Shown piece after piece: positions 3,151-51,091 of a DNA stretch of 56,749 bases. Origin of the DNA: a bacterium (lineage in GTDB: Bacteria; Sysuimicrobiota; Sysuimicrobiia; Sysuimicrobiales; Segetimicrobiaceae); contig DATEHM010000235.1 in the NCBI GenBank assembly GCA_035279545.1, positions 1-56,749 of the forward strand. Direction: 5' to 3'. The notes beneath the pieces were generated by a model. It was given only the letters and a program-made list of their open reading frames with translations, was not told the origin of the DNA and made no database searches. The position numbers and the translations under genes were made by a program. Numbering within the stretch: position 1 is the first letter of the stretch; every line of letters begins with the position of its first letter.

Positions 3151-4164
3151 TCACCGCCCCGCCTGAAAGTGATCCCACCCCTGGGCGGCCAACGGCCGCG
3201 GGTGGCCGTCGGGGCCCTGAATCCACCGCCCGGCGGGTGCCGGCAGGATCTCCCCGATGCGGGTGAGCGTCACGGCGATCTGCCGGGCGATCCGCGGGGC
3301 CTCGGCGTCGAACGCCGGCCCCGCCGTGAACAGGAGTTCATAGTCCTCGCCGCCGCCGAGGGCCCACGCGCGCGGGTCGATCCCCGCCGCCTGCGCGACG
3401 GGCCCGAGGCCGTCCGCGAGCGGCAGTCGCTCTTCGTCGAGCCGCACGCCGACCCCCGAGGCCTCGACGAGGTGCAGCAGGTCGCTGGCCGTTCCGTCGC
3501 TGGTGTCGATCATCGCGTCCGGCCCGAGCGTGCTCAGGACTCTGCCGGCGCCCACGCGGGGACTGGGGCGGCGGTACGCCCGCTCCAGCGCCGCCCTCTG
3601 CGGAACCTGGATCTCGGGATGCTGGAGGAGGAACCGCCCGGCCGCCGCCTTCCCCAGGGACCCGGTCACCCACACCCCGTCCCCCGGCCTGGCGCCCGAG
3701 CGGGTGACGGCGTGCGGCGCTTCGCCGAGCAACGCGACGTCGATGACGAGCGGGCCATCGGTCGCGGAGACGTTTCCGCCGACGATGGAGACGGCGTGGG
3801 CCCGCGCGGCGTCGGCGATCCCCCGGTACAGATCCTCCACCATGGCGAGGGCGGCATCCGACGGCAGCACCAGCGAGATCAGCGCGTGGCGTGGCGTGCC
3901 TCCCATCCCCGCCACATCGCTCAGGTTCACGGCGAGGGCTCGCCAGCCGACGTCGGCGGGCGGGCAGAGCGCCCAGGTGAAATGGACCCCCTCCACCTGA
4001 CTGTCGCAGGTCGCCACGACGGGATGGGAGAACTGCAGGACCGCCGCGTCATCGCCGATCCCGAGGACCACCCCGGGCCCGGTGGTGGGGACGAGCCGGC
4101 GCAGCCGGTCGATCAGGACGAACTCCCCCACCGAGGCGATGGAATTATCCGGTGTGTGCGGCAT
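3151..4164 (-). CDS. thiL: Thiamine-monophosphate kinase
   Basis: PurM-fold ThiL motifs [28 protein letters not shown] and LVGGN-like IVGGNVS. It overlaps the thiE 3-prime end by 20 nt. Confidence 0.9.
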
Positions 4165-4780
4165 CGACCTCCCTCCGAATCCGGCGAACCGCCGCGGCGA
4201 TGTCCTCCGCGGTGGTGGCGGCGGTGATGACGGCCACTCCCTGCGCTCCGGCGCGGATCACCGCCGCCGCGGTGTCCGCCGTGATTCCCCCGGTGCCGAT
4301 CAGCGGCAGCCGGACCACCCGGCGGAGCTCGCGGAGGCGGTCGAGGCCGACCGGCGCGCCGGCGTCGGCCTTGGTGGCGGTGGCGTAGATCGCCCCGACC
4401 CCCAGGTAGTCCGCGCCCGCCCGTTCGGCCGCCACGGCCTCCTCGGCGGTGGCGGCGGAGATCCCGATCACCGCGCCCGGCCCCATCATCGCCCGCACCT
4501 CCCGGGCCGGCAGGTCATCCTGGCCGATGTGGACCCCGTCCGCCCCGGCGATCATCGCGACATCGGCCCGATCGTTGATGACAAACGTGACCCCGGCGGC
4601 GCGGCAGAGGGGGAGGATCTCCCGCGCCGCGTCCACGATCCGGCGGGCCGGTTCGTCTTTCATCCGCAGCTGCACGATCGTCGCCCCGCCCCGGATCGCC
4701 GCCTCGGCGATCTCCCGGTGGGATCGTCCCCGGCTCGTCTGGGTGTCGGTGATCACGCACACCCGCCAGTCCCGCGTCAT
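4145..4780 (-). CDS. thiE: Thiamine-phosphate synthase
   Basis: Motifs VQLRMKD, FVINDRADVA, GADGVHIGQDD, GVGAIYATATK and IGTGGI. The start is trimmed to ATG 4780, which forms an ATGA overlap with the thiM stop (4777-4780). The upstream part of the track ORF is an Arg-rich shadow. Confidence 0.9.
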   Translation of the reverse strand: MTRDWRVCVITDTQTSRGRSHREIAEAAIRGGATIVQLRMKDEPARRIVDAAREILPLCRAAGVTFVINDRADVAMIAGADGVHIGQDDLPAREVRAMMGPGAVIGISAATAEEAVAAERAGADYLGVGAIYATATKADAGAPVGLDRLRELRRVVRLPLIGTGGITADTAAAVIRAGAQGVAVITAATTAEDIAAAVRRIRREVDAAHTG

Positions 4781-5583
4781 TCGCGCCTGACCCGGGCGCA
4801 CCGCACGGCCGCGGCCCCATCCAGGTCGCTCAGGGCGTCCAGCAGGGCCGCGCGAAACGTGCCGGGGCCGGCGCTGCGCTGCGCCGCGCATTCGGCGGCG
4901 ACCTCGAACCAGACCAGCCCGGCGGTCGCCGCGGCGAGGGCATCGGGTTCGACGGCGGCGACGGCGGCGATGCATGCGGTCGCCATGCACCCGCTCCCCG
5001 AGATGCGGGCCAGCCAGGGGTGCCCGTTGGCGATGCGCACGGTCGCGGCGCCGTCGGTGAGCAGATCCTCGACCCCGGTGGCGGCGACCGTGGCCCCGTT
5101 GCTTGCCGCCAGCCGCCGGCTCAGCGCGCCGATGCCCTCGATCACCCCCGCGGTGTCCACCCCCCGCACGTGGCCGGCTAGCCCCGCCAGCGCGGCGATC
5201 TCCCCCGCGTTGCCGCGAATGCAGGCGCACCGGATTTCCGCCAGCAGGCGCCGGATCTGCGCGGACCGGAACGCCGTCCCGCCCACCCCCACCGGGTCCA
5301 GGATCACCGGCACCCCGCGCTGGTTGGCCCGCCGGCCCGCCCGCAGCATCAGGTCGGCGATCTCGCGGGTCAGGGTGCCGGTGTTGAGGACGAGGGCGGC
5401 CGCTTGGCCGGCCACCTCTTCCACTTCCTCCGGCGCTCGCGCCATCACCGGGGCGGCGCCGACGGCCGCGGTGACGTTCGCCACGTCGTTGATCGTGACG
5501 ATGTTGGTGATGTGGTGGACGAGTGGCCGGGCGCTGCGGACACGGGCCATCAGCGCGGCGACGCCCTCGACGGCGCGGGTCAC
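4777..5583 (-). CDS. thiM: Hydroxyethylthiazole kinase
   Basis: Motifs PLVHHITNIVTINDVANVTAAVGAAPVMA, NTGTL, LDPVGVG, IRGNAGEI and GSGCM. Start placed at GTG 5583; ATG 5550 is the alternative. Confidence 0.88.
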   Translation of the reverse strand: MTRAVEGVAALMARVRSARPLVHHITNIVTINDVANVTAAVGAAPVMARAPEEVEEVAGQAAALVLNTGTLTREIADLMLRAGRRANQRGVPVILDPVGVGGTAFRSAQIRRLLAEIRCACIRGNAGEIAALAGLAGHVRGVDTAGVIEGIGALSRRLAASNGATVAATGVEDLLTDGAATVRIANGHPWLARISGSGCMATACIAAVAAVEPDALAAATAGLVWFEVAAECAAQRSAGPGTFRAALLDALSDLDGAAAVRCARVRRE

Positions 5584-5876
5584 CTCGGGCGGCCTTCCCT
5601 CGGGCGGGTCGCCCACCGGTGGAGCCAGTGGCGCAGGCGAAGGCGCAGATCGACCCGCTCCACGGCCCGGCGCATCGCCTCGGTGGTCACGGCATCGCGC
5701 CGGTAGCGGATGCGCACCTCCTTGGTCGCCAGGTTCACCTGGGCGTCGACCACTCCGGGGAGCTCCTCCAGAGCCCCCACCACGCGCCGCGCTCAGAGGC
5801 GGCAGAGGATGCGGTCCGCCCGGATCACGGTCGTCGCGATCTCTCCGCCCGCCCCGGTCACGACTGCGCGGCCCAT
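5580..5876 (-). CDS. HMA (heavy-metal-associated) domain ORF with an in-frame TGA at 5793-5795: candidate CxxU selenoprotein or pseudogene
   Basis: A single frame reads MGRAVVTGAGGEIATTVIRADRILCRL-TGA-ARRVVGALEELPGVVDAQVNLATKEVRIRYRRDAVTTEAMRRAVERVD... This matches the HMA pattern GMTCxxC / xxVexaLxxlxGV / VxVNLA, with the TGA at the second Cys position. The start overlaps the thiW end by 19 nt, and the stop overlaps the thiM GTG (GTGA). A hairpin lies at 5758-5778, 14 nt after the TGA. Confidence 0.5.
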
Positions 5877-6388
5877 CCGCCGACAGCCGGGACGCGGCGC
5901 AGCGCCCGGATGACCACGAACCCCAGCACCGCGCCCGGGATGCTGCTGGAGAGAAAAGCGATCTGAAACCACCAGAGGGTGTGGTGGGACCCGACCAGCG
6001 GCTGGAAGAACCACGCCGCCAGGGTCGCGCCGATGGGGCCCGTCCCGATCGGCTCGCAGAGGGCGGCGGCGTCCGAGCGCAACAGGCGGTAGGCGTACCC
6101 GACGACCAGAGCGCCGAAGGGGCTGCCCGGGAAGGCGAAGAGCGATCCCCATCCCAGGCTGTGGCGGAGGAAGGCGGTGACCAGCGCCGCGGCGGCCGCG
6201 TACCAGGGGCCGACCAGGATCCCGGCGATGGCGTTGATGGTGTGCTGGAACGGCGCCACCCGCGTGGGGCCCACGGGGATGCTGAGCGACCCGAGAAGCG
6301 TCGCCAGCCCGGCGAACATCGCGGCAAGGACGAGCCGCCTGAGGTGCTGACTTCGGTCCCGATCCCGAACCCCCGTCATACCGGCCAC
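5858..6388 (-). CDS. thiW: ThiW-like ECF S-component (putative thiazole precursor transporter)
   Basis: 176-aa protein with several TM helices and the motif PFQHTINAIAGILVGPWY, which matches the ThiW family as I recall it. It sits between tenA and thiM. Confidence 0.7.
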   Translation of the reverse strand: MAGMTGVRDRDRSQHLRRLVLAAMFAGLATLLGSLSIPVGPTRVAPFQHTINAIAGILVGPWYAAAAALVTAFLRHSLGWGSLFAFPGSPFGALVVGYAYRLLRSDAAALCEPIGTGPIGATLAAWFFQPLVGSHHTLWWFQIAFLSSSIPGAVLGFVVIRALRRVPAVGGWAAQS

Positions 6389-9714: not shown

Positions 9715-9750
9715 AAGCAAAACGCGCCACCCCGGAACCGGGGCGGCGCA
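9715..9750 (-). terminator. Intrinsic terminator (expression platform of the TPP riboswitch)
   Basis: The minus-strand RNA GCGCCGCCCCGGUUCCGGGGUGGCGC forms a 10-bp stem with a 6-nt loop. It is followed by GUUUUGCUU and ends 16 nt before the thiZ ATG. Confidence 0.75.
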
Positions 9751-9752
9751 TC

Positions 9753-9840
9753 GAGTCTCCCTCCGCTGGCATTACCCAGATCAGGTTCCGGGGTCGACGG
9801 CAGGTAGCCGTCCTCTCAGCCTGGTCCCCCAAGCTCCCCC
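9753..9840 (-). promoter_or_regulatory. TPP (THI-box) riboswitch aptamer
   Basis: The minus-strand RNA reads GGGGGACCAGGCUGAGAGGACGGCUACCUGCCGUCGACCCCGGAACCUGAUCUGGGUAAUGCCAGCGGAGGGA. It contains the conserved CUGAGA, ACCC, CCUGAUCUGGGUAAUGCCAGCG and GGGA elements in the canonical order. Confidence 0.92.
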
Positions 9841-9898
9841 ATGGCTATGGGTGGTTCTCCAGTAGTATAACATATGGCGGAGGGTCACACCCCGGCGT

Positions 9899-10912
9899 TC
9901 ACGGCGGGGAAGCGCTCCCGGAACCCGCACCCAGCACCCGCCACAGTTCGTCCCCCGCGGGCGGCTCGAGGGGGCGGTCGCCGTCCCCCCGCCGCACCAC
10001 CCGGTCGCGGGGCAGGAACCGGCCGATCTCGACGGCCCGGACGCCGGCGTCCGCGATCGCCGCCACGGTGCGCGCCGCATCCGCGGTGGCGACGAGAAGG
10101 CCCCCGCTCCCCACCAGCCGCAGTGGGTCCGCTCCCAGCTGCGCGCAGACGGCGGCGGTTTCGGGGAGCACCGGGATGCTGGCGGCGTCGACCCGGACGC
10201 CGATCCCCCCCGCCGCGGCCATTTCATAGGCCGCTCCGAGGACGCCGCCCTCGGTGACATCGTGCATGGCATGGGCTCCGCCCCGCGCCGCCGCCCGCGC
10301 TTCCGGGAGGACGCTGATCCGCTGGCGGAACGCCTTCGCCCGCTCCACCAGCGCGGCCCCGAGCTGTGGGACCAGGCGGTGCTCCAGCATCCCGGCGAGG
10401 ATCGCCGTCCCCTCGATTCCTGCCCCCTTGGTGAGGAGCAGCGCGTCCCCCGGCACGCCCCCGCCGCTCCGGAGGACCTGATCCTTCCGCCCCCGCCCCA
10501 CGGCGGTGGCCACGATGATCGTTCGGTCGATCCCCCCGGTCACCTCGCTGTGCCCGCCGGCGATCTCCACACCCAGCTGGCCGGCGGCGGCCGAGGCGTC
10601 TCGCATGATTCGGCCGAGGTCGGCGGCGGCATCGCCGGGAGCGAGGAGGAGCGTGAGCAACAGGGCCACCGGCTCCGCGCCCGTTGCCGCGAGGTCGTTG
10701 GTCGCGATGAAGACCGCGTACCACCCCAAATCGGGCCCCGCTCCGGTGATGGGATCGGTGGTCAGGACGGCGACCTCGTCGCCGAAGTCGATCACCGCGC
10801 AGTCCTCGCCCATCTGGGCATGGACCAGCACATCGGCACGACGCGCCCCGAGGTGCCGGTAGACGATCGAGGAGAGGAGGTCGGCGGCCACTTTCCCGAT
10901 CGGGAGTCCCAC
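9899..10912 (-). CDS. AIR synthase-related (PurM superfamily) protein, function unknown
   Basis: PurM N- and C-domain motifs GEDCAVIDF, TTDPITG, ATNDLAATGAEP, EIAGGHSE and HDVTEGG. GTG 10912 is preceded by GGAGGA 8 nt upstream. The longer track ORF (to 11272) overlaps the upstream gene and is Arg/Pro-rich. Confidence 0.8.
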   Translation of the reverse strand: MGLPIGKVAADLLSSIVYRHLGARRADVLVHAQMGEDCAVIDFGDEVAVLTTDPITGAGPDLGWYAVFIATNDLAATGAEPVALLLTLLLAPGDAAADLGRIMRDASAAAGQLGVEIAGGHSEVTGGIDRTIIVATAVGRGRKDQVLRSGGGVPGDALLLTKGAGIEGTAILAGMLEHRLVPQLGAALVERAKAFRQRISVLPEARAAARGGAHAMHDVTEGGVLGAAYEMAAAGGIGVRVDAASIPVLPETAAVCAQLGADPLRLVGSGGLLVATADAARTVAAIADAGVRAVEIGRFLPRDRVVRRGDGDRPLEPPAGDELWRVLGAGSGSASPP

Positions 10913-24565: not shown

Positions 24566-25177
24566 TCAGTCCGGAAAGTGGCGGCGCAGCAACGGGAACA
24601 GCGTCTTCACGAAGGCGACCGCCCGGTCTTGAGTGTCTTGTTCCGAGCCAACCAGAGGGGCGGTGACTCGGATCAGCGCCCCCTCCGATCGGTGATGCTG
24701 GAGCGCCCGCACCGTCTGGGCGAACTTGCCGCGATAGGGATCCGCAACGGCGCGGCCACCGATTTGGTACCAGTAGAGGACCACCGACTCCGTCCCATCC
24801 TCGCGGATCAGACCCCGGTTGAACGTCAGCGGGACGCCGTCGATCTGGGCCGTGTCCACGCCGGTTGCGAGGACGTCGCAGACCGCGCACACGCTCAGCG
24901 CCTGTCCGCGGGTGGCTTCACGCGCGTAGTAGGCGACATAGAGCATCAGGCTGTGGCCCGTCGCATCGGTATACCGGCGGTTGATCATCTGATCGGGACG
25001 GGTCCGGTCGACCGTCATGGCATCGATCGGTTCGGCGTGCCCCCGCCACACCGACAGCTGGTACGGCAGGTCGTCGAGGGGCACGCGAAGGGAGACGCCC
25101 TGCCCGATCAGCACCTCGCTGGCCACGGCTGCCGCCACAAGGGTCGCCACGCTGAGCGCGTACCGCCACCCGCTCAT
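24566..25177 (-). CDS. EpsI family (exosortase-associated) protein
   Basis: 203 aa with an N-terminal TM helix. ATG 25177 forms an ATGA overlap with the exosortase stop. Size and context fit EpsI. The upstream part of the track ORF was discarded. Confidence 0.7.
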   Translation of the reverse strand: MSGWRYALSVATLVAAAVASEVLIGQGVSLRVPLDDLPYQLSVWRGHAEPIDAMTVDRTRPDQMINRRYTDATGHSLMLYVAYYAREATRGQALSVCAVCDVLATGVDTAQIDGVPLTFNRGLIREDGTESVVLYWYQIGGRAVADPYRGKFAQTVRALQHHRSEGALIRVTAPLVGSEQDTQDRAVAFVKTLFPLLRRHFPD

Positions 25178-25995
25178 ACCGGCAGGCCGGAGGCGGTGCG
25201 TTTGGCCAGCAGGGCTTGGACGCCCATCAGACACACCGTCGCCACCACGAACACCGTCCAGCCGGCGAGGGTGTGATACATCCCTTCGTAAAACCCGAGA
25301 AGGATGTTCGAGGTGACGCGCACCGCGTTTGAGAGGATGGCGATGGGCAACACGGAGGCGATGAGCACGGCCCGGTCCGTCCAGCGCAGGCGGGTCATAA
25401 AGGCCAGCATCACGGCGGTGGCACCAAGCGCGATCAGCGAACGAAACCCGCTGCAGGCCGCGGCGACTTCGAGGCGCACGTTCGGTAGGTCGATGTACAC
25501 GCCCTGGAGGAGCACCGGATACCCGGCGAAATGCAGGACCGCGGTTGAGAACCGCGCGGTGAAGATCTGCAGTGGCCAGGTAATATGATTGAAGAGCGCC
25601 GGCGGGAGAGGAATCATGAGTGCCAGAAAGATGAGAGGGAACGCCAGCGGTTTGACGAGCCCCCATCCTCCCAGGAAGAGGCTAAGGCCAAACAGCACGA
25701 AGATCAGGGACGCCTCGGCAATCACCCTCGCCCCGCCGGTTCGTCCGAGAATCAGGCAGAGCAACCCGAAGATTAGAAGGACGTACCCCCACCACGATCC
25801 CCGGGAATCCGGCCGGAGCGTGTGCCACCGTTCCCAGACGAGGTACGCCGCCACGGGAGGGATGAAGAATCCGTACCCCAGGTTGGAAATATCGTCGAGC
25901 CACTCGGCTAACAGCCAGCCTACGACCGGATAATACAGCCAGGCGAGCAGTCCGGCGAGCCCCGCCACCCCGATGATCGTCCTGTAGCGCCCCAT
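25174..25995 (-). CDS. Exosortase (EpsH family)
   Basis: Polytopic membrane protein with VAAACSGFRSL (catalytic Cys context) and ILSNAVRV (Asn/Arg motif). ATG 25995 has GGGAG 8 nt upstream. ATG 26076 is an alternative start without an SD. Confidence 0.85.
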   Translation of the reverse strand: MGRYRTIIGVAGLAGLLAWLYYPVVGWLLAEWLDDISNLGYGFFIPPVAAYLVWERWHTLRPDSRGSWWGYVLLIFGLLCLILGRTGGARVIAEASLIFVLFGLSLFLGGWGLVKPLAFPLIFLALMIPLPPALFNHITWPLQIFTARFSTAVLHFAGYPVLLQGVYIDLPNVRLEVAAACSGFRSLIALGATAVMLAFMTRLRWTDRAVLIASVLPIAILSNAVRVTSNILLGFYEGMYHTLAGWTVFVVATVCLMGVQALLAKRTASGLPV

Positions 25996-26118
25996 CGCGA
26001 TCTCCCTTGCTTGTTCGGGGGGTTCCTTGGCGGCGCAGTACGCCCTTCCTCCGTTCGAAGGATTTGGGGCATTCATCCGAACGGCGGAGCGATTGGCTGG
26101 CAGTGCTGGAGGGAACGG

Positions 26119-33496: not shown

Positions 33497-34767
33497 TGCC
33501 GGAGGCTGTTCGCGATCTCCAGGCTGCCGAGGGGGAGGAACGCCTGCTCCTGGTTGCGCTGTTCCTGTTCGCCCTCCTCGTCCGCGTCATCATGATCGCG
33601 CAGACCATCGGGTTCCACACTCCCGGCACGGCGGAACCGGCGGCCGACAGTCGAATCCACTTAGCGCTCGTCCAGAGCCTCCTGACGCACCACGGGTACA
33701 GCCTCAACGGGCGCCCCACCGCGATCACGCCGCCGCTCTATGTGTTTTTTCTCGCGAGCCTCTACCGGGCATCCGCTGACCCAGCCCTGGTCCGCTTCGT
33801 CCAGGCGTTCTTGGGTGCGATGGGATGTGTCCTGCTGTATGCGATCGGCCGCAGGCTTGTGGGCCCAACAACCGGCGTCGTCGCCGCGGTGATCTTGGGC
33901 CTGCACCCGCTGATCGCGTATCTCGCCGGGCTCCACCTGACCGAGAATCTCTTCTTATTCCTCCTCTTGCTCGTGCTGCTCCAGTCGCAGCGGGTGGCGG
34001 AGCGTCCGACCCCGCTCGCCGTTGCCGGCCTGGGAGGGTTGTTTGGGCTGGCGACCCTGACCCGTGCGGTGTTCTTGGGGTTTCTGCCCTTCGTCCTGGT
34101 GTGGGCGATCGGTCTGTGGGGGTGGCGCAACCCCGTCGGCTACCGGGTGTTCGCGTTGGTGGCGGTCGCCGCGGCGATCGTGATTCTTCCCTGGACTGTG
34201 CGGAATTACGTCGCCTTGGGCGCGCTGGTCCCGGTCCAGGGCAACGGGGGCATGGTCTTCTGGGCGGGGAACAACCCCCGGTCCGACGGCCAAATGGTCT
34301 GGCCGACGGGCCAGACCTGGGCGGACGGCCCCCCGCCTGACGACGGCATGTACGGGTGGCGGGGGGTGGGCCCGGCGGAGGAGAACCGGCGGTACGTGGG
34401 GGCGGCGGTGTCGTGGATTCGTCATCATCCGCGAGACTATCTACGGTTGCTGGCCCACAAACTTGAGCGGCTCTATGGGTTTTCGCGCGCCGCCGACGCA
34501 CGCGAGCTTGCCGTGCCGTTTGCGGTGATCGCCTTTCACGTGGGGTTGTTGGTGGCCGCCCTCGGCGGCCTCGTGGTCACGGTCAGGCGGTGGAAGAGCG
34601 TCGCGCTGCTGCTGGGGCTGATTGTGTTTACGAATCTGACCGCCCTGCTGTTCAGCGGGGGCACCCGCTACAGCGTTCCGATGATGCCGAGCCTGATCAT
34701 TCTCGCCGCCGCCGCCCTGACGACCGCTTGGAGCGCGTCGATGCGACCGCTGGGGGCCACGCGATGA
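33496..34767 (+). CDS. GT-C fold glycosyltransferase, family 39 / ArnT-PMT-like
   Basis: Polytopic membrane protein. An Asp-containing first loop (AADSRIH) is followed by TPPLYVFFLASLY, and there is a large C-terminal region. TGATG overlap with the upstream gene. Confidence 0.7.
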   Translation: MPEAVRDLQAAEGEERLLLVALFLFALLVRVIMIAQTIGFHTPGTAEPAADSRIHLALVQSLLTHHGYSLNGRPTAITPPLYVFFLASLYRASADPALVRFVQAFLGAMGCVLLYAIGRRLVGPTTGVVAAVILGLHPLIAYLAGLHLTENLFLFLLLLVLLQSQRVAERPTPLAVAGLGGLFGLATLTRAVFLGFLPFVLVWAIGLWGWRNPVGYRVFALVAVAAAIVILPWTVRNYVALGALVPVQGNGGMVFWAGNNPRSDGQMVWPTGQTWADGPPPDDGMYGWRGVGPAEENRRYVGAAVSWIRHHPRDYLRLLAHKLERLYGFSRAADARELAVPFAVIAFHVGLLVAALGGLVVTVRRWKSVALLLGLIVFTNLTALLFSGGTRYSVPMMPSLIILAAAALTTAWSASMRPLGATR

Positions 34768-36113
34768 GCTTTCCCGCGGCCGGATCGCCCGAGTTGCTCC
34801 TCCTGGGGACGGTGTACACGCTGCTCGCGTTTGTGAGCCCGAAGCTGGCGCTTTTCGCCATCCTCCCCGTGATCGCGTTGGCCCCGGAGACGCAGATCGG
34901 GCAGGTGTTGATCCGCCCCGATGACCTCATGATCGCGATCCTGGCGGTCTCCTGGGGGCTCCGGCGGCTCATGAACTCGGTCCGGGACGCCGCCCCGCTG
35001 GACCAGCCCCTGGTCTGGTACTTCATCGTCGGGCTGGCGGCGACGTTGTGGGGCGCAGCGATCGGGACCGCCGATCTCACCTCGCTTTCGAAATTTTCGG
35101 CGTCGGGGCTGCATCTGCTGAAGCGGCTGGAGTTTGTCCTGTTCTTCTTCATCATCAAGGACACGATTCGATCGATCGCCGATGCCCGGCGGCTCGTCTC
35201 CATGTTCATGATCAGCCTGATCGGGTTGAGCCTCTATGCCTTCGGCAGCTTTCGACAGACCGGGACGATCGCGCTCGGCCCCAGCGGCACGCCCATTCAC
35301 GAACCCGGCCTCGCCTCTATGCTCAATGTGGCCCTGGCCCTCGGATTCTTGACCGACTCCGGGGGGATTGGCCGGTCCTGGGTCATGAACGCGGTCCTGC
35401 TGGGCTCTCTCTACACGCTCCCCTTCGGGTTGGGGCGAAACTACCTGGCGGCGACCCTGTTGATGCTGCTCATCGTGGCGGTGTGCCGGAAGCGTTCGGG
35501 GTTGCTGTTTCTGCCGGTGAGCGCCCTGGTGCTCTCGCTGGTGGCCGGTTTTGTCCTCTACCCACAGAATGTGACCCAGCGGTTCCTGACCTTGGAATCC
35601 GCCCTGGGGGGATCTCCCCAGGCCAGCGCGCAGGGGGTGTCCCTGGTCGATCGGCTCACGCCTGGGATCCAGCACGGGTGGGCGGTGCTCACTTCCTCGC
35701 CGCTCCTGGGCTGGGGGCTTGGGAGCGTCGCGCTGGGGAGTATCGACAGCGAGTATGCCGGCCAGTTCGTCTACACCGGAATCGTCGGGTTTCTGGTGTT
35801 CGTCTGGGTTGTCCGCCGCATCGCCCGGACGGCCCGCGAAACGTACCGGACCGCGAGAGACACGGGCTCTCCGGCGCTGCCGCTGATTGCCGGGCTGCAA
35901 TACTGTCTCCTCGGCTATGCGTTGTACAGTCTCTTTAGCCCGTCGATCTCCGCCGCGCGTGCCGGCGCGTTCTTTTTTACGATTCTCGGTCTCGTCGCGG
36001 TCCTGTACCGGGAGGTGGCGATGGCCGGTGTCCAGCAGACGGCACCGGAAGAGGAGGCCGCCGGATCGCAGGTCGGTCCACTTGGTGTTCCCTCGCCGGA
36101 GTGGACGGTGTGA
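34764..36113 (+). CDS. O-antigen ligase/polymerase family (Wzy_C-like) membrane protein
   Basis: About 10 or more TM segments and a loop SPLLGWGLGSVALGSIDSEYAGQFVYTGIVGF resembling the Wzy_C motif. ATGA overlap with the upstream gene. Confidence 0.7.
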   Translation: MSFPAAGSPELLLLGTVYTLLAFVSPKLALFAILPVIALAPETQIGQVLIRPDDLMIAILAVSWGLRRLMNSVRDAAPLDQPLVWYFIVGLAATLWGAAIGTADLTSLSKFSASGLHLLKRLEFVLFFFIIKDTIRSIADARRLVSMFMISLIGLSLYAFGSFRQTGTIALGPSGTPIHEPGLASMLNVALALGFLTDSGGIGRSWVMNAVLLGSLYTLPFGLGRNYLAATLLMLLIVAVCRKRSGLLFLPVSALVLSLVAGFVLYPQNVTQRFLTLESALGGSPQASAQGVSLVDRLTPGIQHGWAVLTSSPLLGWGLGSVALGSIDSEYAGQFVYTGIVGFLVFVWVVRRIARTARETYRTARDTGSPALPLIAGLQYCLLGYALYSLFSPSISAARAGAFFFTILGLVAVLYREVAMAGVQQTAPEEEAAGSQVGPLGVPSPEWTV

Positions 36114-42470: not shown

Positions 42471-43605
42471 CGTGATCCTGGTGACGAACGAGTACCCACC
42501 GGAAAAGGTTGCGGGCACCGCCGTCGCCACCCGGTTCCTTGCCGAGGAGCTGGCCGCGCGCGGCCACCGCGTCACCGTGGTCGTCAACACCCGCCGGGAC
42601 GCGGCGGCGAGCGAAACGGCGGGTTCGCTGGAAGTCATCCGCCTCCGCCCGATCGAACTCCCGGTGACGCGGATGGCTCAGCGCGCCGCCCTGCTGGTGG
42701 GCATCGCGCGGCGGACCCGCCCGGACATCATCCAGGGGCAGTCGCTCTCCTGCGGGTTTCTGGCGCTCCTCGCCGCGCGTTCGCTGCGTCTGCCCGCGGT
42801 CGTGTACGTCCAAGGACTGGACTTGTACCAATCCGGTGCCTGGGCCCGGCGGACCTACATCCGGTGGGCCCTGCGCTCCTGTGACGGCGTGGTGGCCGTG
42901 ACCCCCGATCTCCAGGCGAGGGCCTTCGCCCTCTCCCGCCGCCGCGGCGAGGTCATCCCCCACGGTCTCAGGCGGCAGGAAACCGATGGGCTGGATCGGC
43001 AGACGGCGCGGACCCTCCTGGGCCTTCCCGCCGATGCCAGGATCGTGGTCTTCGTCGGGCGACTCATCCGGCTGAAGGGGGTCGCGCACCTCATCGGGGC
43101 GATGCCCCGCGTCCTCGCGCGATGCCCGGGGACGCGGCTGGTTCTCGTGGGCGACGGCGAGGAGCGATCCCGGCTCGAGGAGGCGGCCGGCGCTCTGCCC
43201 CCGGGGTGCGTGGCGTTTGCCGGCGCGCGCGAGCACGAAGAGGTGATCCGGTACATGCAGGCGGCGGATGTCTTCGTCCTGCCGAGTTTGATCGAGTCCT
43301 TTGGCATTGTGCTGGTGGAAGCGATGAGTTGCGGGCTCCCCATCGTCGCCTCGAACATCATGGGGATTCCTGCCGTCGTGGAAGATGGGGTGAACGGATT
43401 TCTGGTCCCCCCAGGCGATGAGGCCGCGCTCGCCGACCGGGTGATCCGGCTGTTGACGGATCCGGCGGCGTCGGCCGCAATTTCGGCGGTCAACCTCCGC
43501 ACCGCCGCGACCTATGCCCTGCCCCGCGTCGCCGATCGGTTTCTCAAACTGTGGGGGGAGATCATCGCCTCGCGCCGTCTCCCGGAATCCTGGGCGCGGA
43601 GCTGA
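42460..43605 (+). CDS. Glycosyltransferase family 4
   Basis: Motifs VILVTNEYPPEKVAGTAV and PSLIESFGIVLVEAMSCGLPIVASNIMGIPAVVEDGVNGFLV. Confidence 0.85.
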   Translation: MFPSVILVTNEYPPEKVAGTAVATRFLAEELAARGHRVTVVVNTRRDAAASETAGSLEVIRLRPIELPVTRMAQRAALLVGIARRTRPDIIQGQSLSCGFLALLAARSLRLPAVVYVQGLDLYQSGAWARRTYIRWALRSCDGVVAVTPDLQARAFALSRRRGEVIPHGLRRQETDGLDRQTARTLLGLPADARIVVFVGRLIRLKGVAHLIGAMPRVLARCPGTRLVLVGDGEERSRLEEAAGALPPGCVAFAGAREHEEVIRYMQAADVFVLPSLIESFGIVLVEAMSCGLPIVASNIMGIPAVVEDGVNGFLVPPGDEAALADRVIRLLTDPAASAAISAVNLRTAATYALPRVADRFLKLWGEIIASRRLPESWARS

Positions 43606-43616
43606 GCGACGGAGCT

Positions 43617-44936
43617 GTGGCGAGCGCGCTGGTGAGGGAATTGGGACGTCGCTGCCTGTTCGGCCGGGAGTTGGGTGCCGCGCGCGATGCGCACTGGACG
43701 ATGCAGTGGCAGTCAACGGCCACGATCCAGGAACGGCAGTGGGCGCAGGTACGCGCGTGCGTCGCCTACGCGCGGCAGGCCAGCGACTTTTACCGGGGCC
43801 GTCTCGCCGCGGTGCACCTCGACGGCGAGCTGACCGCCGACGCCTTTCGCCGGATCCGTCCGCTGAGCCGCCAGGAGGTGGTGGGCTCGGGGGCGGGGAT
43901 CCGGACGAGCGGCGGGCGCCCCGGCGTGATGCGCCGGCGGTCGGGGGGGAGCAGTGGCGACAGCGTCCAGATTCCCCTCGACCGGGGGACGTATCGCTGG
44001 TACACCGCCGGGACGTGGCGGGGGCTGCGGTGGTGGGGAGCGGATCTTGCCGACCGCGGAGCGGTCGTCCTGGGGTCAGGAGCGACCGGGGTCCGGCGCC
44101 TCGTCCTGGGGGCCAAGGACTGGGTCATGAACTGGCTGCGCCTTCCCGTCGATGAGCGATTCGATGACCGGCTCCCGGCGATGGTTGACCGCATGCAGCG
44201 GTTCGGCCCCGCGTTCATCTACGGGTACCCCTCCGCGGTGCACCCCCTCGCGGTTGCCGTCCGCGACCGAGGGTGGCGGCCCACGCATCCCCTGAAGGTG
44301 ATCGCGCTGACCGGCGAGCCCGTCTACGCGTTCCAGCGGCAGGCGATCGCGCGCGCGTTTCACTGTCCAGTTGTGGAGGAGTACGGCAGTGGCGAATTGG
44401 GCTCGATGGGGTTTGAGTGCCCCGAGGGCTCGTTGCACGTCACGGCCGAGAATGTCTTCCTCGAGATCGTCCCCTCCGACCTTCCGGCGGACGGCGCCGG
44501 GGGCCCGATCCTCGCCACCCAACTGCACAACCGGCTCTTCCCGCTGATCCGGTACGAGACCGGGGACGTGGGCCTCCTCCGCACGGAGCCATGTCGATGC
44601 GGGCGGGGGCTGCCCACGCTCCGGGTGTTCGGACGGCTGGGGGACCGGCTGGAGGGGCCCGGGGGAACGATCCTGGCCAGACCGAAAGTTGAGGAGTTGT
44701 TCACCGCGCTCCCGGAGCCGCTTCAAGGGCGGGTGCAGGTGGTTCACCCCGCGCCGGCGCTTCTCGCCCTCCACGTCGCCCGGCCGGTGGACCCCGCGCG
44801 TGACCTGGGCGCGGCGACTTCGGCCGCCCGAGTCGTGTTCGGTCCGGACTGGCGTGTCGAGGCGGCCGCGGTCGGGCGACTCGCCCGTCTGGTCTCCGGG
44901 AAGCTGCCCTACTTCCTTCGGGCAACCCCCCGATGA
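43617..44936 (+). CDS. Adenylate-forming enzyme of the PaaK/CapK/F390-synthetase type
   Basis: Motifs SGGSSGDSVQIP (AMP-binding loop-like), IYGYPSAV, EEYGSGELG and YETGD. The start is uncertain: GTG 43617 or ATG 43701. Confidence 0.7.
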   Translation: MASALVRELGRRCLFGRELGAARDAHWTMQWQSTATIQERQWAQVRACVAYARQASDFYRGRLAAVHLDGELTADAFRRIRPLSRQEVVGSGAGIRTSGGRPGVMRRRSGGSSGDSVQIPLDRGTYRWYTAGTWRGLRWWGADLADRGAVVLGSGATGVRRLVLGAKDWVMNWLRLPVDERFDDRLPAMVDRMQRFGPAFIYGYPSAVHPLAVAVRDRGWRPTHPLKVIALTGEPVYAFQRQAIARAFHCPVVEEYGSGELGSMGFECPEGSLHVTAENVFLEIVPSDLPADGAGGPILATQLHNRLFPLIRYETGDVGLLRTEPCRCGRGLPTLRVFGRLGDRLEGPGGTILARPKVEELFTALPEPLQGRVQVVHPAPALLALHVARPVDPARDLGAATSAARVVFGPDWRVEAAAVGRLARLVSGKLPYFLRATPR

Positions 44937-48910: not shown

Positions 48911-50674
48911 CTATCGCCGCTTCGGCTTGGCCCCGCCCCTGCCTTTTTGAGCACCGGAAGGTGTCGACCCGCTCGTGGACAGTGTAGAACCGCTGGTGGT
49001 CAACGCCGTCGGTTGCCCCGTGGGCGTCATCGTGTAGTACTTGTTGGCGGTGAGGGTAAAGTGGGTGATCTGGCCGGTACGCCAGACGGTCTCCACCGCT
49101 ACCGACCCGCTGCACGTCCCCAACCCGAAATGGATGACTCGGCTGCTCTGGTGCACCCACCCCGTCCGGGCGGTCAACTGCTGGACCTGCCGCCTGTTGC
49201 ACGCGGTAATCGTCACCCACGACCCGATCGTGACGGGTCCGTTCAGCCGAAATCCGATCCAGCTATTCCCGCTCTGGGTGACGTTGCGATAGAGGATGAA
49301 TGGCCCCGGGACCCCTTGGTCGTTGTAGCCGACGATCAGATCCAGCCGCCCGTCCATGTCGTAGTCGATCACGGCGGCGCCGCCGGCTCCGAAGGGTGTG
49401 CCGACGAACCGGTTGAGGCCCGCTTGGGTCGCCATGTCGGTGAATTGCCCGTGGCCGTTGTTCATCAGGAGGGCGTCCGGACCTTTGCAGCCGTTGCCGT
49501 TCTGGAGACATCCCCGGCTCATGGTCACGAAGATGCTGGGCGCCCCCGAGTTGTCAAAGTCGCCGACCGCCATGGAACGGACTTCGGCGTTCGGCCCGTG
49601 CGGCAACGGGACGCGGCTGCACTCCGTGAGAATGGTGGTCCCGTTATTGCAAAGGATTCGCATCGTCGCCGGGGTCAAGGCGACGCCGGCGTCGAGGAAA
49701 CCGTGCCCCGAGAAATCCGCGAAGTAGGCGTCGTGATTGTACGGCCCCAGGCTCGCGGCCACGCCGCCGTACACGCCGGTCGTCGGTGTGAACGTGCCAT
49801 TCCTGTTGTTTAGAAACCACAAGCTGTAGTTGTTGCCGGTGGTGAGGCAGTCCATCAACCCGATCCGGCGGAAGTCTGCGCACGCCAACCCGTAAGGCTT
49901 CTCATCGGCGCTGTACGCGGTCGTGCCCGTCAGTCCGCGGGCAACCGCCTGTTCCTGGAGTGGGGTTGTCGGCAGCGAATTCACCCAGAGGTGCTGGGCC
50001 GGTTGGCTGCCGAAGGGGGGCGTAGGCTCTAGGTTGGCCAGAAGCACGTCCGGTCCGGTGCCGACGAGGTTGCCGCAGGTCATCGCGCTGACCTTCGACA
50101 TGAGGTCCGTCGTGCCCAGCTTCGAGGCAATGTCGGTGAAGCTTTTCCCGTCGTTGTGAAGCCAGAGGTCGTTGACGCCGGTGACGTCTCTGGTATCGGT
50201 CCGGAATCCCGTGCCGATGATCAGATCTTCGAACCCGGTATGCTCGACATCGCACCACAACGCGATATGCCGGTGCTGGGTCGTGTCGGTCACCGGCGGG
50301 AGGAGCGAGGTCGTTTCCGTGAACGTCCCGTGGGCATTATGAAATAGCTGACCGCCCCGCGGCCACGTCAACGATCCCTCGTTGCCGCCGAGCGTACACG
50401 GTTGGCCGACGTTGAAATTGCAGCTGCCGTGATGGCCAATGTACACGCTGTCCCAGCCGCTGTTGTCGTAATCGGCAACCGCAATGTCGCCCCACTGCTC
50501 GCCGATGATGGGTTGACCCTTGGTGGTGAGGCCAACCTTGACCGTGACATCCTGGAAGCTCACCGAACCGGCAGGTGACGAGGACGGTGCGCTTTGCGAC
50601 GCCGGCGGGATGATCCATGCGGCCCCCACCAGCAGGCCGGCCAGTCCCAGAAGATACCGCAACGGGTGAATCAT
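48911..50674 (-). CDS. Secreted FG-GAP/VCBS repeat protein with ASPIC/UnbV C-terminal domain (CRTAC1-like)
   Basis: Signal peptide MIHPLRYLLGLAGLLVGAAW. Repeats GDIAVADYDNSGWDSV, GDFDNSGAPSIFV and VIDYDMDGRLDLIV. UnbV-like segment GNSWIGFRLNG...VIHFGLG...VWRTG. The start is trimmed to ATG 50674 (GGGGG SD). Confidence 0.8.
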   Translation of the reverse strand: MIHPLRYLLGLAGLLVGAAWIIPPASQSAPSSSPAGSVSFQDVTVKVGLTTKGQPIIGEQWGDIAVADYDNSGWDSVYIGHHGSCNFNVGQPCTLGGNEGSLTWPRGGQLFHNAHGTFTETTSLLPPVTDTTQHRHIALWCDVEHTGFEDLIIGTGFRTDTRDVTGVNDLWLHNDGKSFTDIASKLGTTDLMSKVSAMTCGNLVGTGPDVLLANLEPTPPFGSQPAQHLWVNSLPTTPLQEQAVARGLTGTTAYSADEKPYGLACADFRRIGLMDCLTTGNNYSLWFLNNRNGTFTPTTGVYGGVAASLGPYNHDAYFADFSGHGFLDAGVALTPATMRILCNNGTTILTECSRVPLPHGPNAEVRSMAVGDFDNSGAPSIFVTMSRGCLQNGNGCKGPDALLMNNGHGQFTDMATQAGLNRFVGTPFGAGGAAVIDYDMDGRLDLIVGYNDQGVPGPFILYRNVTQSGNSWIGFRLNGPVTIGSWVTITACNRRQVQQLTARTGWVHQSSRVIHFGLGTCSGSVAVETVWRTGQITHFTLTANKYYTMTPTGQPTALTTSGSTLSTSGSTPSGAQKGRGGAKPKRR

Positions 50675-51091
50675 CCTCGGTTTCCCCCTTGGCGTGGACG
50701 GGGTCGGCGCGAACATCCCCGGCCGCCTGTGGCATCAAACCTGCCACGAGCGCCGGTCCTCTCTCGCGCGATCTCCGTGGAGGGAACAGCGCCGTCCGAC
50801 GGCATCACGCATCGGTTCGGGCCGACGGTGCCGTGGGCCATCCACCGGCGAACCCCTGCGGTGCGCGGGCCCGAGCCCGCCCATTCCGGTAGCCCAGTGA
50901 GCCCACTCCGGCAACCCAGCCGACTTGCCAGCCGCCGCTGGCCTGTCCTGTGGCTTTGCGTCCCCAGATCTCTCCGGGGTTGCCCCTACGAAGCGTCCAC
51001 GCTGGTTTACCTTCCCCAGTTACACCATTCCTAGACCCGCCGCCGGCGGCATGTGACAATTTCCCCATGCCACCGGCCACGGGGCGCCGTG

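Follow-up and report, generated by a model that had tools for sequence, protein, structure and literature searches.

The 119 families in a 2026 inventory of prokaryotic selenoproteins include a P-type ATPase with a UxxC motif, a UxxU protein and the CU metal-binding protein 'MbdU', which are the entries related to the HMA-fold gene considered here (PMC13188914). That gene lies in a thiamine gene cluster on a stretch of DNA of 56,749 nucleotides (contig DATEHM010000235.1, positions 1 to 56,749, of GenBank assembly GCA_035279545.1), here called the window, from a bacterium of the family Segetimicrobiaceae, phylum Sysuimicrobiota. The 119-family table contains no stand-alone HMA protein with a CxxU motif and no thiamine-tied family (PMC13188914), and no published link between HMA selenoproteins and thiamine was found. 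A genome set of the CSP1-3/Sysuimicrobiota group includes three grassland metagenome-assembled genomes (MAGs) (PMC11604079), and selenium is mentioned neither there nor in PMC11962464. The HMA-fold gene in the window very probably reads an internal UGA as selenocysteine (Sec), and would represent a new CxxU selenoprotein family. We infer Sec insertion itself from what the sequences display directly, namely the gene, its reading frame, the conserved UGA, a covarying hairpin and two thiamine gene contexts.

A conserved in-frame UGA in an HMA-fold gene

The gene and its parts are all on the minus strand:

5580..5861 (-), candidate selenoprotein gene of 93 codons, V1...C20-R-L-U23...R93, with an HMA fold and a basic C-terminal tail
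5861-5859 (-), GTG start codon, overlapping the thiW stop as GTGA; alternative start ATG 5876-5874
5802..5804 (-), TGC codon of Cys20, the first residue of C-x-x-U; TGC and TGT alternate (synonymously) among homologs
5793..5795 (-), in-frame UGA (U23, predicted Sec) in the Cys2 column of the HMA CxxC motif in 22/22 distinct homologs
5758..5778 (-), hairpin resembling a selenocysteine insertion sequence (SECIS): 5′ arm 5778-5771, loop UGGAG 5770-5766, 3′ arm 5765-5758
5613..5657 (-), family-specific C-terminal tail, RVDLRLRLRHWLHRW
5582-5580 (-), TGA stop codon of the HMA gene, overlapping the thiM GTG as GTGA

An earlier note on this DNA, made from the sequence alone, had described a single minus-strand frame that opens at ATG 5876, ends with the stop at 5580 and is interrupted by TGA 5793-5795. 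This frame is present; it reads MGRAVVTGAGGEIATTVIRADRILCRL-TGA-ARRVVGALEELPGVVDAQVNLATKEVRIRYRRDAVTTEAMRRAVERVDLRLRLRHWLHRWATRPREGRPR-TGA, or in short form MGRAVVTGAGGEIATTVIRADRILCRL*ARRVVGALEELPGVV... The note had also described the gene as embedded between its neighbours like a translated gene. This stands, with one correction to the proposed ATG start: GTG 5861 is likelier, because its GTGA overlap with the thiW stop is conserved in relatives, whereas ATG 5876 is common only to the closest relative.

Homologous DNA was drawn from loci fetched by means of ThiW, from ENA and Logan contigs, from GTDB genomes (protein-profile scan, and DNA pattern of the C-terminal motif) and from JGI metagenomes (the latter pattern), and 22 distinct 66-nt segments around the UGA site were compared. 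They come from independent genomes and metagenomes (NCBI MAGs, ENA, Logan, JGI), with amino-acid identity down to about 45-60%, and the carrier genomes include VBAK01, VBAN01, VBAO01, JAPVSX01, DATHLI01 and DASUDA01. Between thiW and thiM, soil MAGs of uncultured 'ANGP1' bacteria and related bins have the same TGA-bearing gene. The pattern TG[C/T]-NNN-NNN-TGA was present in all 22 sequences, while the two residues between Cys and TGA vary (RL, HL, WV, HI, SL, EL, GL). The earlier note had left it to homologs to decide between Cys and TGA in this column: TGC, TGT or TGG occurs there in none of the sequences, and conservation extends to the sequence before and after the TGA.

The segment upstream of the TGA evolves as coding sequence. 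Variable columns in the 10 codons that precede the TGA number 6, 2 and 10 at codon positions 1, 2 and 3, respectively, and the ratio of synonymous to non-synonymous codon differences is 159:122 before the TGA versus 681:1059 after it. Six of these upstream codons specify an unchanging amino acid but differ synonymously within the initial set of seven loci. In each of the 10 thiW-linked loci whose thiW end was checkable, the start overlaps the thiW stop as [A/G]TGA, in frame with the TGA. The distance from start to TGA takes six values, from 21 to 42 codons, among 10 thiW-linked loci; since the frame is kept at all six N-terminal lengths, every insertion or deletion must have been a multiple of three. 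In one locus outside the thiW context (L082), a thiamine pyrophosphate (TPP) riboswitch at 604-717 is followed by ATG 756, the first ATG after it, which opens the frame 16 codons before the TGA. These substitution and overlap patterns indicate that the region upstream of the TGA is coding and subject to in-frame purifying selection.

With the TGA read through, the product matches the Pfam HMA domain (PF00403) with 40.2 bits over residues 18-73, covering profile positions 2-57 of 62 (gathering threshold 24.8). The open reading frame after the TGA alone scores 25.5 bits and covers positions 19-57. The HMA homology therefore spans the TGA, because the score is higher when the upstream part is included. 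With TGA taken as C, the loop 'ilCrlC' aligned on 'mtCaaC' and 'mtCqsC' of the solved HMA domains of Bacillus subtilis CopA (1p6t) and ATP7B (7xuk), so that the TGA column corresponds to Cys2 of CxxC both in these structures and in the Pfam profile, as in a Sec/Cys pair. This bears out the earlier placement of the TGA at the second metal-binding Cys. Every member of the family retains the C-x-x-[U] spacing of the HMA loop, and in every member GMT is exchanged for DR[IM][LV]. A structure model was made of the post-TGA fragment only and is of low confidence, with a predicted local distance difference test score (pLDDT) of 64 and a predicted template-modelling score (pTM) of 0.31. The C-terminal tail has an alternating, strand-like DLRLRLR followed by a cationic amphipathic stretch that contains the conserved motif [R/L]H[W/R]xH; the C-terminal segment analysed carries a net charge of +2 to +9 and a conserved HxxH.

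Protein databases contain the family in truncated form. A word-based search with the read-through sequence returned eight clusters of 63-70 residues, comprising the post-TGA part only. A profile search with the post-TGA part against 1.84 billion representative proteins gave 13 family clusters, recognisable by the tail RVDxRLRxRH[W/R]xH, and in all 13 the family match begins at residue 1-3 of the called protein, i.e. after the TGA. Among these 1.84 billion representatives, a full-length Cys form is therefore lacking altogether. The short database calls are explained by the in-frame TGA, which is seen in the thiW-thiM loci of the ThiW-fetched DNA. The entries examined (P0001-P0011, P0015, P0017, P0022, P0035, P0052, P0073, P0105 and P0124) are all calls of 50-86 residues that begin after the UGA, and two family entries were named 'copper chaperone CopZ' by JGI. 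The shortest family calls (51-56 residues) begin deep within the domain, and the first possible start is likewise deep within it in three fetched members that have no start at codon +4.

The gene can also be absent. Four loci of close relatives (L003, L005, L006 and L007, from Centralia_MAG_47, Centralia_MAG_233, SMAG_U11806 and SMAG_U12316, respectively) encode a ThiW that is 71-77% identical and lack the gene; no remnant of it was found in them, thiM following directly on thiW, with a stop-on-start overlap of the two in L006. Sister genomes without the gene are JAJPJL01, JAJPIA01, DASQGM01 and DASPUZ01. This clean difference between carriers and non-carriers could be set against the distribution of the Sec machinery.

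The hairpin and the decoding of the UGA

The earlier note had placed a hairpin at 5758-5778, 14 nt after the TGA, and this hairpin is present. Its sequence is GGGGGCUC-UGGAG-GAGCUCCC, with a stem of 8-9 bp and a loop that lies 22-23 nt after the UGA; in the consensus core, 5777-5770 are paired with 5766-5759 around a GGA loop. The hairpin folds at the same columns in 22/22 sequences, with energies of -8.8 to -17.8 kcal/mol, and RNAalifold recovers it unprompted. In the 22-sequence alignment, 97.2% of cells are standard pairs, compared with 47-70% in controls whose 3′ partner was shifted by 1-3 columns. Both sides have changed in four of the eight pairs (G-C to C-G, U-A to C-G, C-G to U-A and G-C to U-G), and one G·U pair has become A-U in six sequences. 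The covariation score was reached by none of 500 shuffles. The check for a stable hairpin that the note had left open was thus answered by RNAalifold and by compensatory change.

Codon usage within the hairpin points in the same direction. Among eleven thiW-linked sequences, 4 of 6 codons in the hairpin core are invariant, as against 1 of 16 other amino-acid-invariant codons (Fisher p = 0.009). GCT, a codon used for only 4% of Ala in the window, is among the frozen hairpin codons; of the two hairpin codons that vary, one is in the loop and the other at the weak outermost pair. The bacterial SECIS model has a loop of 3-9 nt, a stem of 4-16 bp and a G in the first two loop positions, at a distance of 16-37 nt from the UGA and with an energy of at most -7.5 kcal/mol (PMC13188914). 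The hairpin agrees with this model in its GGA or UGGAR loop (with a closing U·G/A pair), in the placement of the G, and in stem, distance and energy. As judged from the alignment, the conservation of TGA, frame and hairpin across 22 distinct relatives exceeds chance. Together, the invariant TGA, the coding pattern on both sides of it and the covarying hairpin support the earlier proposal of a candidate CxxU selenoprotein.

Several observations weigh against this reading. The folding energy of the hairpin is no better than that of shuffled sequences (z = -1.06, with 28 of 200 shuffles as stable, in a sequence of 67% G+C); folding stability was therefore dropped as evidence, and covariation and synonymous-site conservation were used instead. 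The covariation coincides in part with amino-acid replacements (ALEELP to ALEG[VL]P), and the independent lineages and events are few. The genes selA, selB and selD and a tRNA-Sec were not seen in the 56.7 kb window or in the fetched loci of the lineage, to which this search was confined. Finally, the family has no Cys-containing orthologue, and the Sec/Cys pairing holds only in comparison with generic HMA domains.

Further searches for the Sec machinery gave the following results. No tRNA was found in the window or in 34 related loci, and there are no sel genes among the other genes of the window. When the SelA motif GDKLLGGPQ was used as a DNA pattern genome-wide, the carrier genomes were not among the matches listed (at least 120), a result that is uninformative.

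If the TGA were a true stop, the gene would be split into a peptide of 21-42 residues and a protein of about 66 residues that restarts at the GTG four codons on, or only the latter would be made. All gene callers place the start of the product at this GTG, codon +4 is GTG in 19 of the 22 sequences, and the post-TGA reading frame passes the Pfam HMA threshold on its own (25.5 versus 24.8 bits). However, the remaining members (L225, L213/L270 and L253) have GTA or GTC at codon +4 and lack any start over at least 14 codons after the TGA, and they nevertheless retain A-x-R-V-x-x-A-L-E-x-L-P-G. Moreover, the upstream piece, which is under purifying selection in frame, holds strand 1 and Cys1 of the same HMA domain, the stop coincides with the Cys2 column, and no Shine-Dalgarno-like sequence was seen by eye before the GTG. 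A split gene, the rival to be taken seriously, is therefore improbable.

Alternatively, the UGA might be recoded, but not to Sec, either through read-through by a near-cognate tRNA (Trp) or through a system like SelB and tRNA-Sec that delivers Cys. On the evidence of genome surveys, some variants of the Sec machinery have been proposed to place Cys at UGA, and the conserved UGA, frame and hairpin speak for recoding rather than for the identity of the inserted residue. On the other hand, Trp at position 23 would destroy the CxxC-type motif, and Cys insertion predicts TGC or TGT in some of the 22 sequences, where neither was found. At the second ligand position of CxxC, exchange of Sec for Cys is the rule among known selenoproteins (PMC13188914, Table 1). 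We give insertion of another residue little credence.

A nonsense mutation that has produced a pseudogene, which is the default reading of a single in-frame stop, and a sequencing error in the contig were the alternatives named in the earlier note; both are excluded, with a residual chance close to nil, because the TGA recurs in one and the same column of 22 distinct, independently assembled sequences, with frames intact and a coding substitution pattern on both sides. A change of the genetic code that makes UGA a sense codon throughout the organism found no support and is scarcely conceivable, because 22 of the window's 41 called genes end in TGA, thiW and the HMA gene itself among them, and scans of the window and related loci gave no other convincing in-frame TGA in coding sequence, only gene junctions and one antisense artefact.

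Under the preferred reading, Sec insertion, the UGA at 5795-5793 would be recoded by the hairpin acting as a bacterial SECIS, bound by SelB carrying Sec-tRNA(Sec). The product would be a small protein of 93 codons with the HMA (ferredoxin-like) fold and a C-x-x-U metal or redox loop, and its translation would be coupled to that of thiW upstream and thiM downstream, in both cases through the GTGA overlap.

Thiamine gene context and possible function

The neighbouring elements on which the context rests are:

9741-9850 (-), TPP riboswitch (Rfam RF00059, 55 bits), heading a string of genes on the same strand
5858..6388 (-), thiW, thiazole-precursor transporter of the energy-coupling factor (ECF) S-component type (Pfam ThiW 152.8 bits)
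4777..5583 (-), thiM, hydroxyethylthiazole kinase (family match 251.6 bits), GTG start at 5583

The string behind the riboswitch consists of genes for an ATP-binding cassette (ABC) ATPase, a permease and an NMT1/ThiY protein, followed by tenA, thiW, the selenoprotein gene, thiM, thiE, a thiL-like gene and thiD. The genes overlap or are closely spaced, which suggests that they are co-transcribed. The riboswitch arrangement of the window recurs in two related loci (L010 and L012). Because the whole string stands behind the TPP riboswitch, the selenoprotein would be made when thiamine pyrophosphate is scarce.

The family occurs in two thiamine contexts, tenA-thiW-X-thiM and TPP riboswitch-X-thiT, where X is the family gene. 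In the latter, the gene of a second subfamily of the C-x-x-UGA protein (L016, L017, L021 and L082) stands before thiT (Thia_YuaJ) rather than after thiW. The TPP riboswitch of L082 has the family gene as the first gene behind it, and thiT of L021 is followed by a gene for thiamine pyrophosphokinase. Rfam gave no TPP element in L016, L017 and L021, whose contigs are short or truncated. The thiT-linked loci are on short contigs and had no match among the GTDB genome set. The family gene always adjoins a gene for an ECF-type S-component, thiW or thiT, to which it would be translationally coupled in those loci that were checked, and the two contexts have in common the uptake of a thiazole-containing compound followed by its phosphorylation. 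An HMA protein under TPP-riboswitch control had been noted earlier as unexplained; that remark stands, and the association is conserved in both contexts.

Several neighbouring genes bear on the pathway. The thiL-like gene, with AIRS and AIRS_C domains, lies at 3151-4164 (-) between thiE and thiD, and the cluster therefore covers pyrimidine and thiazole salvage through TPP formation. In one lineage, that of L012 (5988-7280) and L013-L015, a gene for an M20 peptidase is inserted between the ThiY-like gene and tenA. We take this M20 peptidase to be a YlmB-like formylaminopyrimidine deformylase, and its insertion points to salvage of base-degraded thiamine. Another gene of the AIR-synthase superfamily lies directly upstream of the TPP riboswitch, at 9899 to about 10930 (-) in the window, at 4852-5880 in L010 and at 2155-3171 in L012; in these three lineages it comes after DegT and GFO/IDH genes. 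In the window it scored 101.8 bits as HypE (cut-off 251.6), 86.6 as SelD (cut-off 125) and 83.9 as ThiL (cut-off 184), and since it falls below all three cut-offs it is classed only as a member of the PurM family. An identification as SelD was rejected: the score is below the cut-off and lower than that for HypE, and by eye the Gly-rich N-terminal loop with Cys or Sec is lacking.

As to function, the C-x-x-U pair, perhaps together with the HxxH of the tail, could act on an imported compound or bind a ligand. For example, it might reduce a disulfide or oxidised form of thiamine or thiazole through a selenenyl-sulfide before ThiM or thiamine pyrophosphokinase acts, the imported material being processed at the inner face of the membrane before it reaches the kinase. 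The tail may be suited to docking at the membrane surface, or may supply an extra pair of ligands. A redox function on imported thiamine or thiazole is a guess, which we hold to be rather unlikely, and binding of a ligand or metal is about equally likely. We put forward with similar hesitation the more specific proposal that the protein is an obligate-Sec, HMA-fold partner of the ThiW and ThiT S-components and performs a selenium-dependent step of vitamin B1 salvage, such as reducing disulfide or ring-opened forms of thiamine or thiazole from soil, or capturing them by way of a selenenyl-sulfide.

Much of the remainder of the window, from about 16000 to 55000, is a large exopolysaccharide/exosortase locus. 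It encodes the exosortase EpsH (25174-26076), a Poly_export/SLBB protein, a GNVR and P-loop chain-length regulator, UDP-glucose dehydrogenase, a Wzt-type ABC ATPase, several glycosyltransferases of families GT2 and GT4, a 739-residue TPR protein and two LuxR-type response regulators; two large open reading frames in it (34590-36113 and 43551-44936) have no Pfam match. At the edge of this locus, a cyclic di-GMP-I riboswitch (50907-50994 (-), 59 bits) lies just upstream of the gene at 48911-50716 (-), which encodes a 601-residue protein with FG-GAP/ASPIC repeats.

Comparison with known selenoproteins and salvage proteins

The recoding mechanism is known and the fold has selenoprotein precedents; new are the family, its motif and tail, the lack of Cys orthologues and the pathway context. 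To our knowledge, a selenoprotein family without Cys orthologues is unusual; this would be such a rare case, and the lack of a Cys form would suggest that the chemistry cannot do without Sec. If Sec insertion is correct, the family adds to the roughly 119 known prokaryotic selenoprotein families, provides the first link between selenium and vitamin B1 salvage, and implies that abundant, uncultured soil bacteria (the ANGP1 / CSP1-3 group) use selenocysteine. We know of no selenium requirement in thiamine salvage controlled by a TPP riboswitch. Were the protein an obligate-Sec partner of ThiW and ThiT, acquisition of vitamin B1 would depend on selenium in a widespread soil phylum. The strict pairing with thiW or thiT suggests that thiazole-containing compounds, once taken up, pass through an unrecognised processing step before they are phosphorylated, a part of thiamine salvage that is acknowledged to be poorly understood (PMC11223231). 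The family also illustrates the systematic mis-annotation of selenoprotein genes, being known only as 'CopZ-like' fragments of 50-86 residues.

No curated CopZ or HMA selenoprotein model accommodates the read-through protein. Its nearest NCBIfam match is CopZ, with 40.9 bits (cut-off 91), followed by NF041115 with 32.6 bits (cut-off 95); the CopZ models NF033795, NF033794 and NF047957 gave 40.9, 29.6 and 30.3 bits, all below their cut-offs of 85-95. CopZ, Atx1 and the N-terminal domain of CopA (PF00403; PDB 1p6t and 7xuk) share the fold and the loop position, are the best solved-structure matches and have Cys aligned to the UGA. They differ in that GMT before Cys1 is replaced here by (A)DR[IM][LV], in that no copper genes are nearby, and in the tail, which is absent from CopZ.

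Sec at the metal site has precedents in two related families. In the Sec-containing, cation-transporting P-type ATPase, the UxxC motif presumably lies in the N-terminal HMA domain. As in the present family, Sec there replaces Cys in an HMA-related metal-site motif (TIGR01525; ABB15669.1; PMC13188914, Table 1), but it is the first ligand (UxxC) and the domain forms part of a large membrane ATPase, whereas here Sec is the second ligand in a protein of 93 residues without an ATPase. The best match among NCBIfam selenoproteins is the UxxU (seleno)protein NF041115, which resembles the N-terminal part of a 'putative mercuric reductase' and is likewise a small stand-alone HMA-like protein with Sec in the metal-binding loop (PMC13188914, Table 1). 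In contrast to it, the thiamine-operon family has CxxU (one Sec) rather than UxxU (two), has a basic tail of its own, and has no mercury- or metal-resistance neighbours.

The C-x-x-U motif itself is shared with the GrdA, SelW-like and AhpD-like selenoproteins (PMC13188914, Table 1), although these have unrelated folds and no sequence similarity to them was found. The redox proposal made above draws on these families, because their C-x-x-U cycles through a selenenyl-sulfide. On the side of the pathway, the closest counterpart is OarX, likewise a redox-type gene of unknown role in thiamine salvage and transport clusters with TPP riboswitches (PMC11223231). OarX is a short-chain dehydrogenase, neither a selenoprotein nor homologous to the HMA-fold family, and offers a possible precedent for a salvage step in which damaged thiamine or thiazole is repaired.

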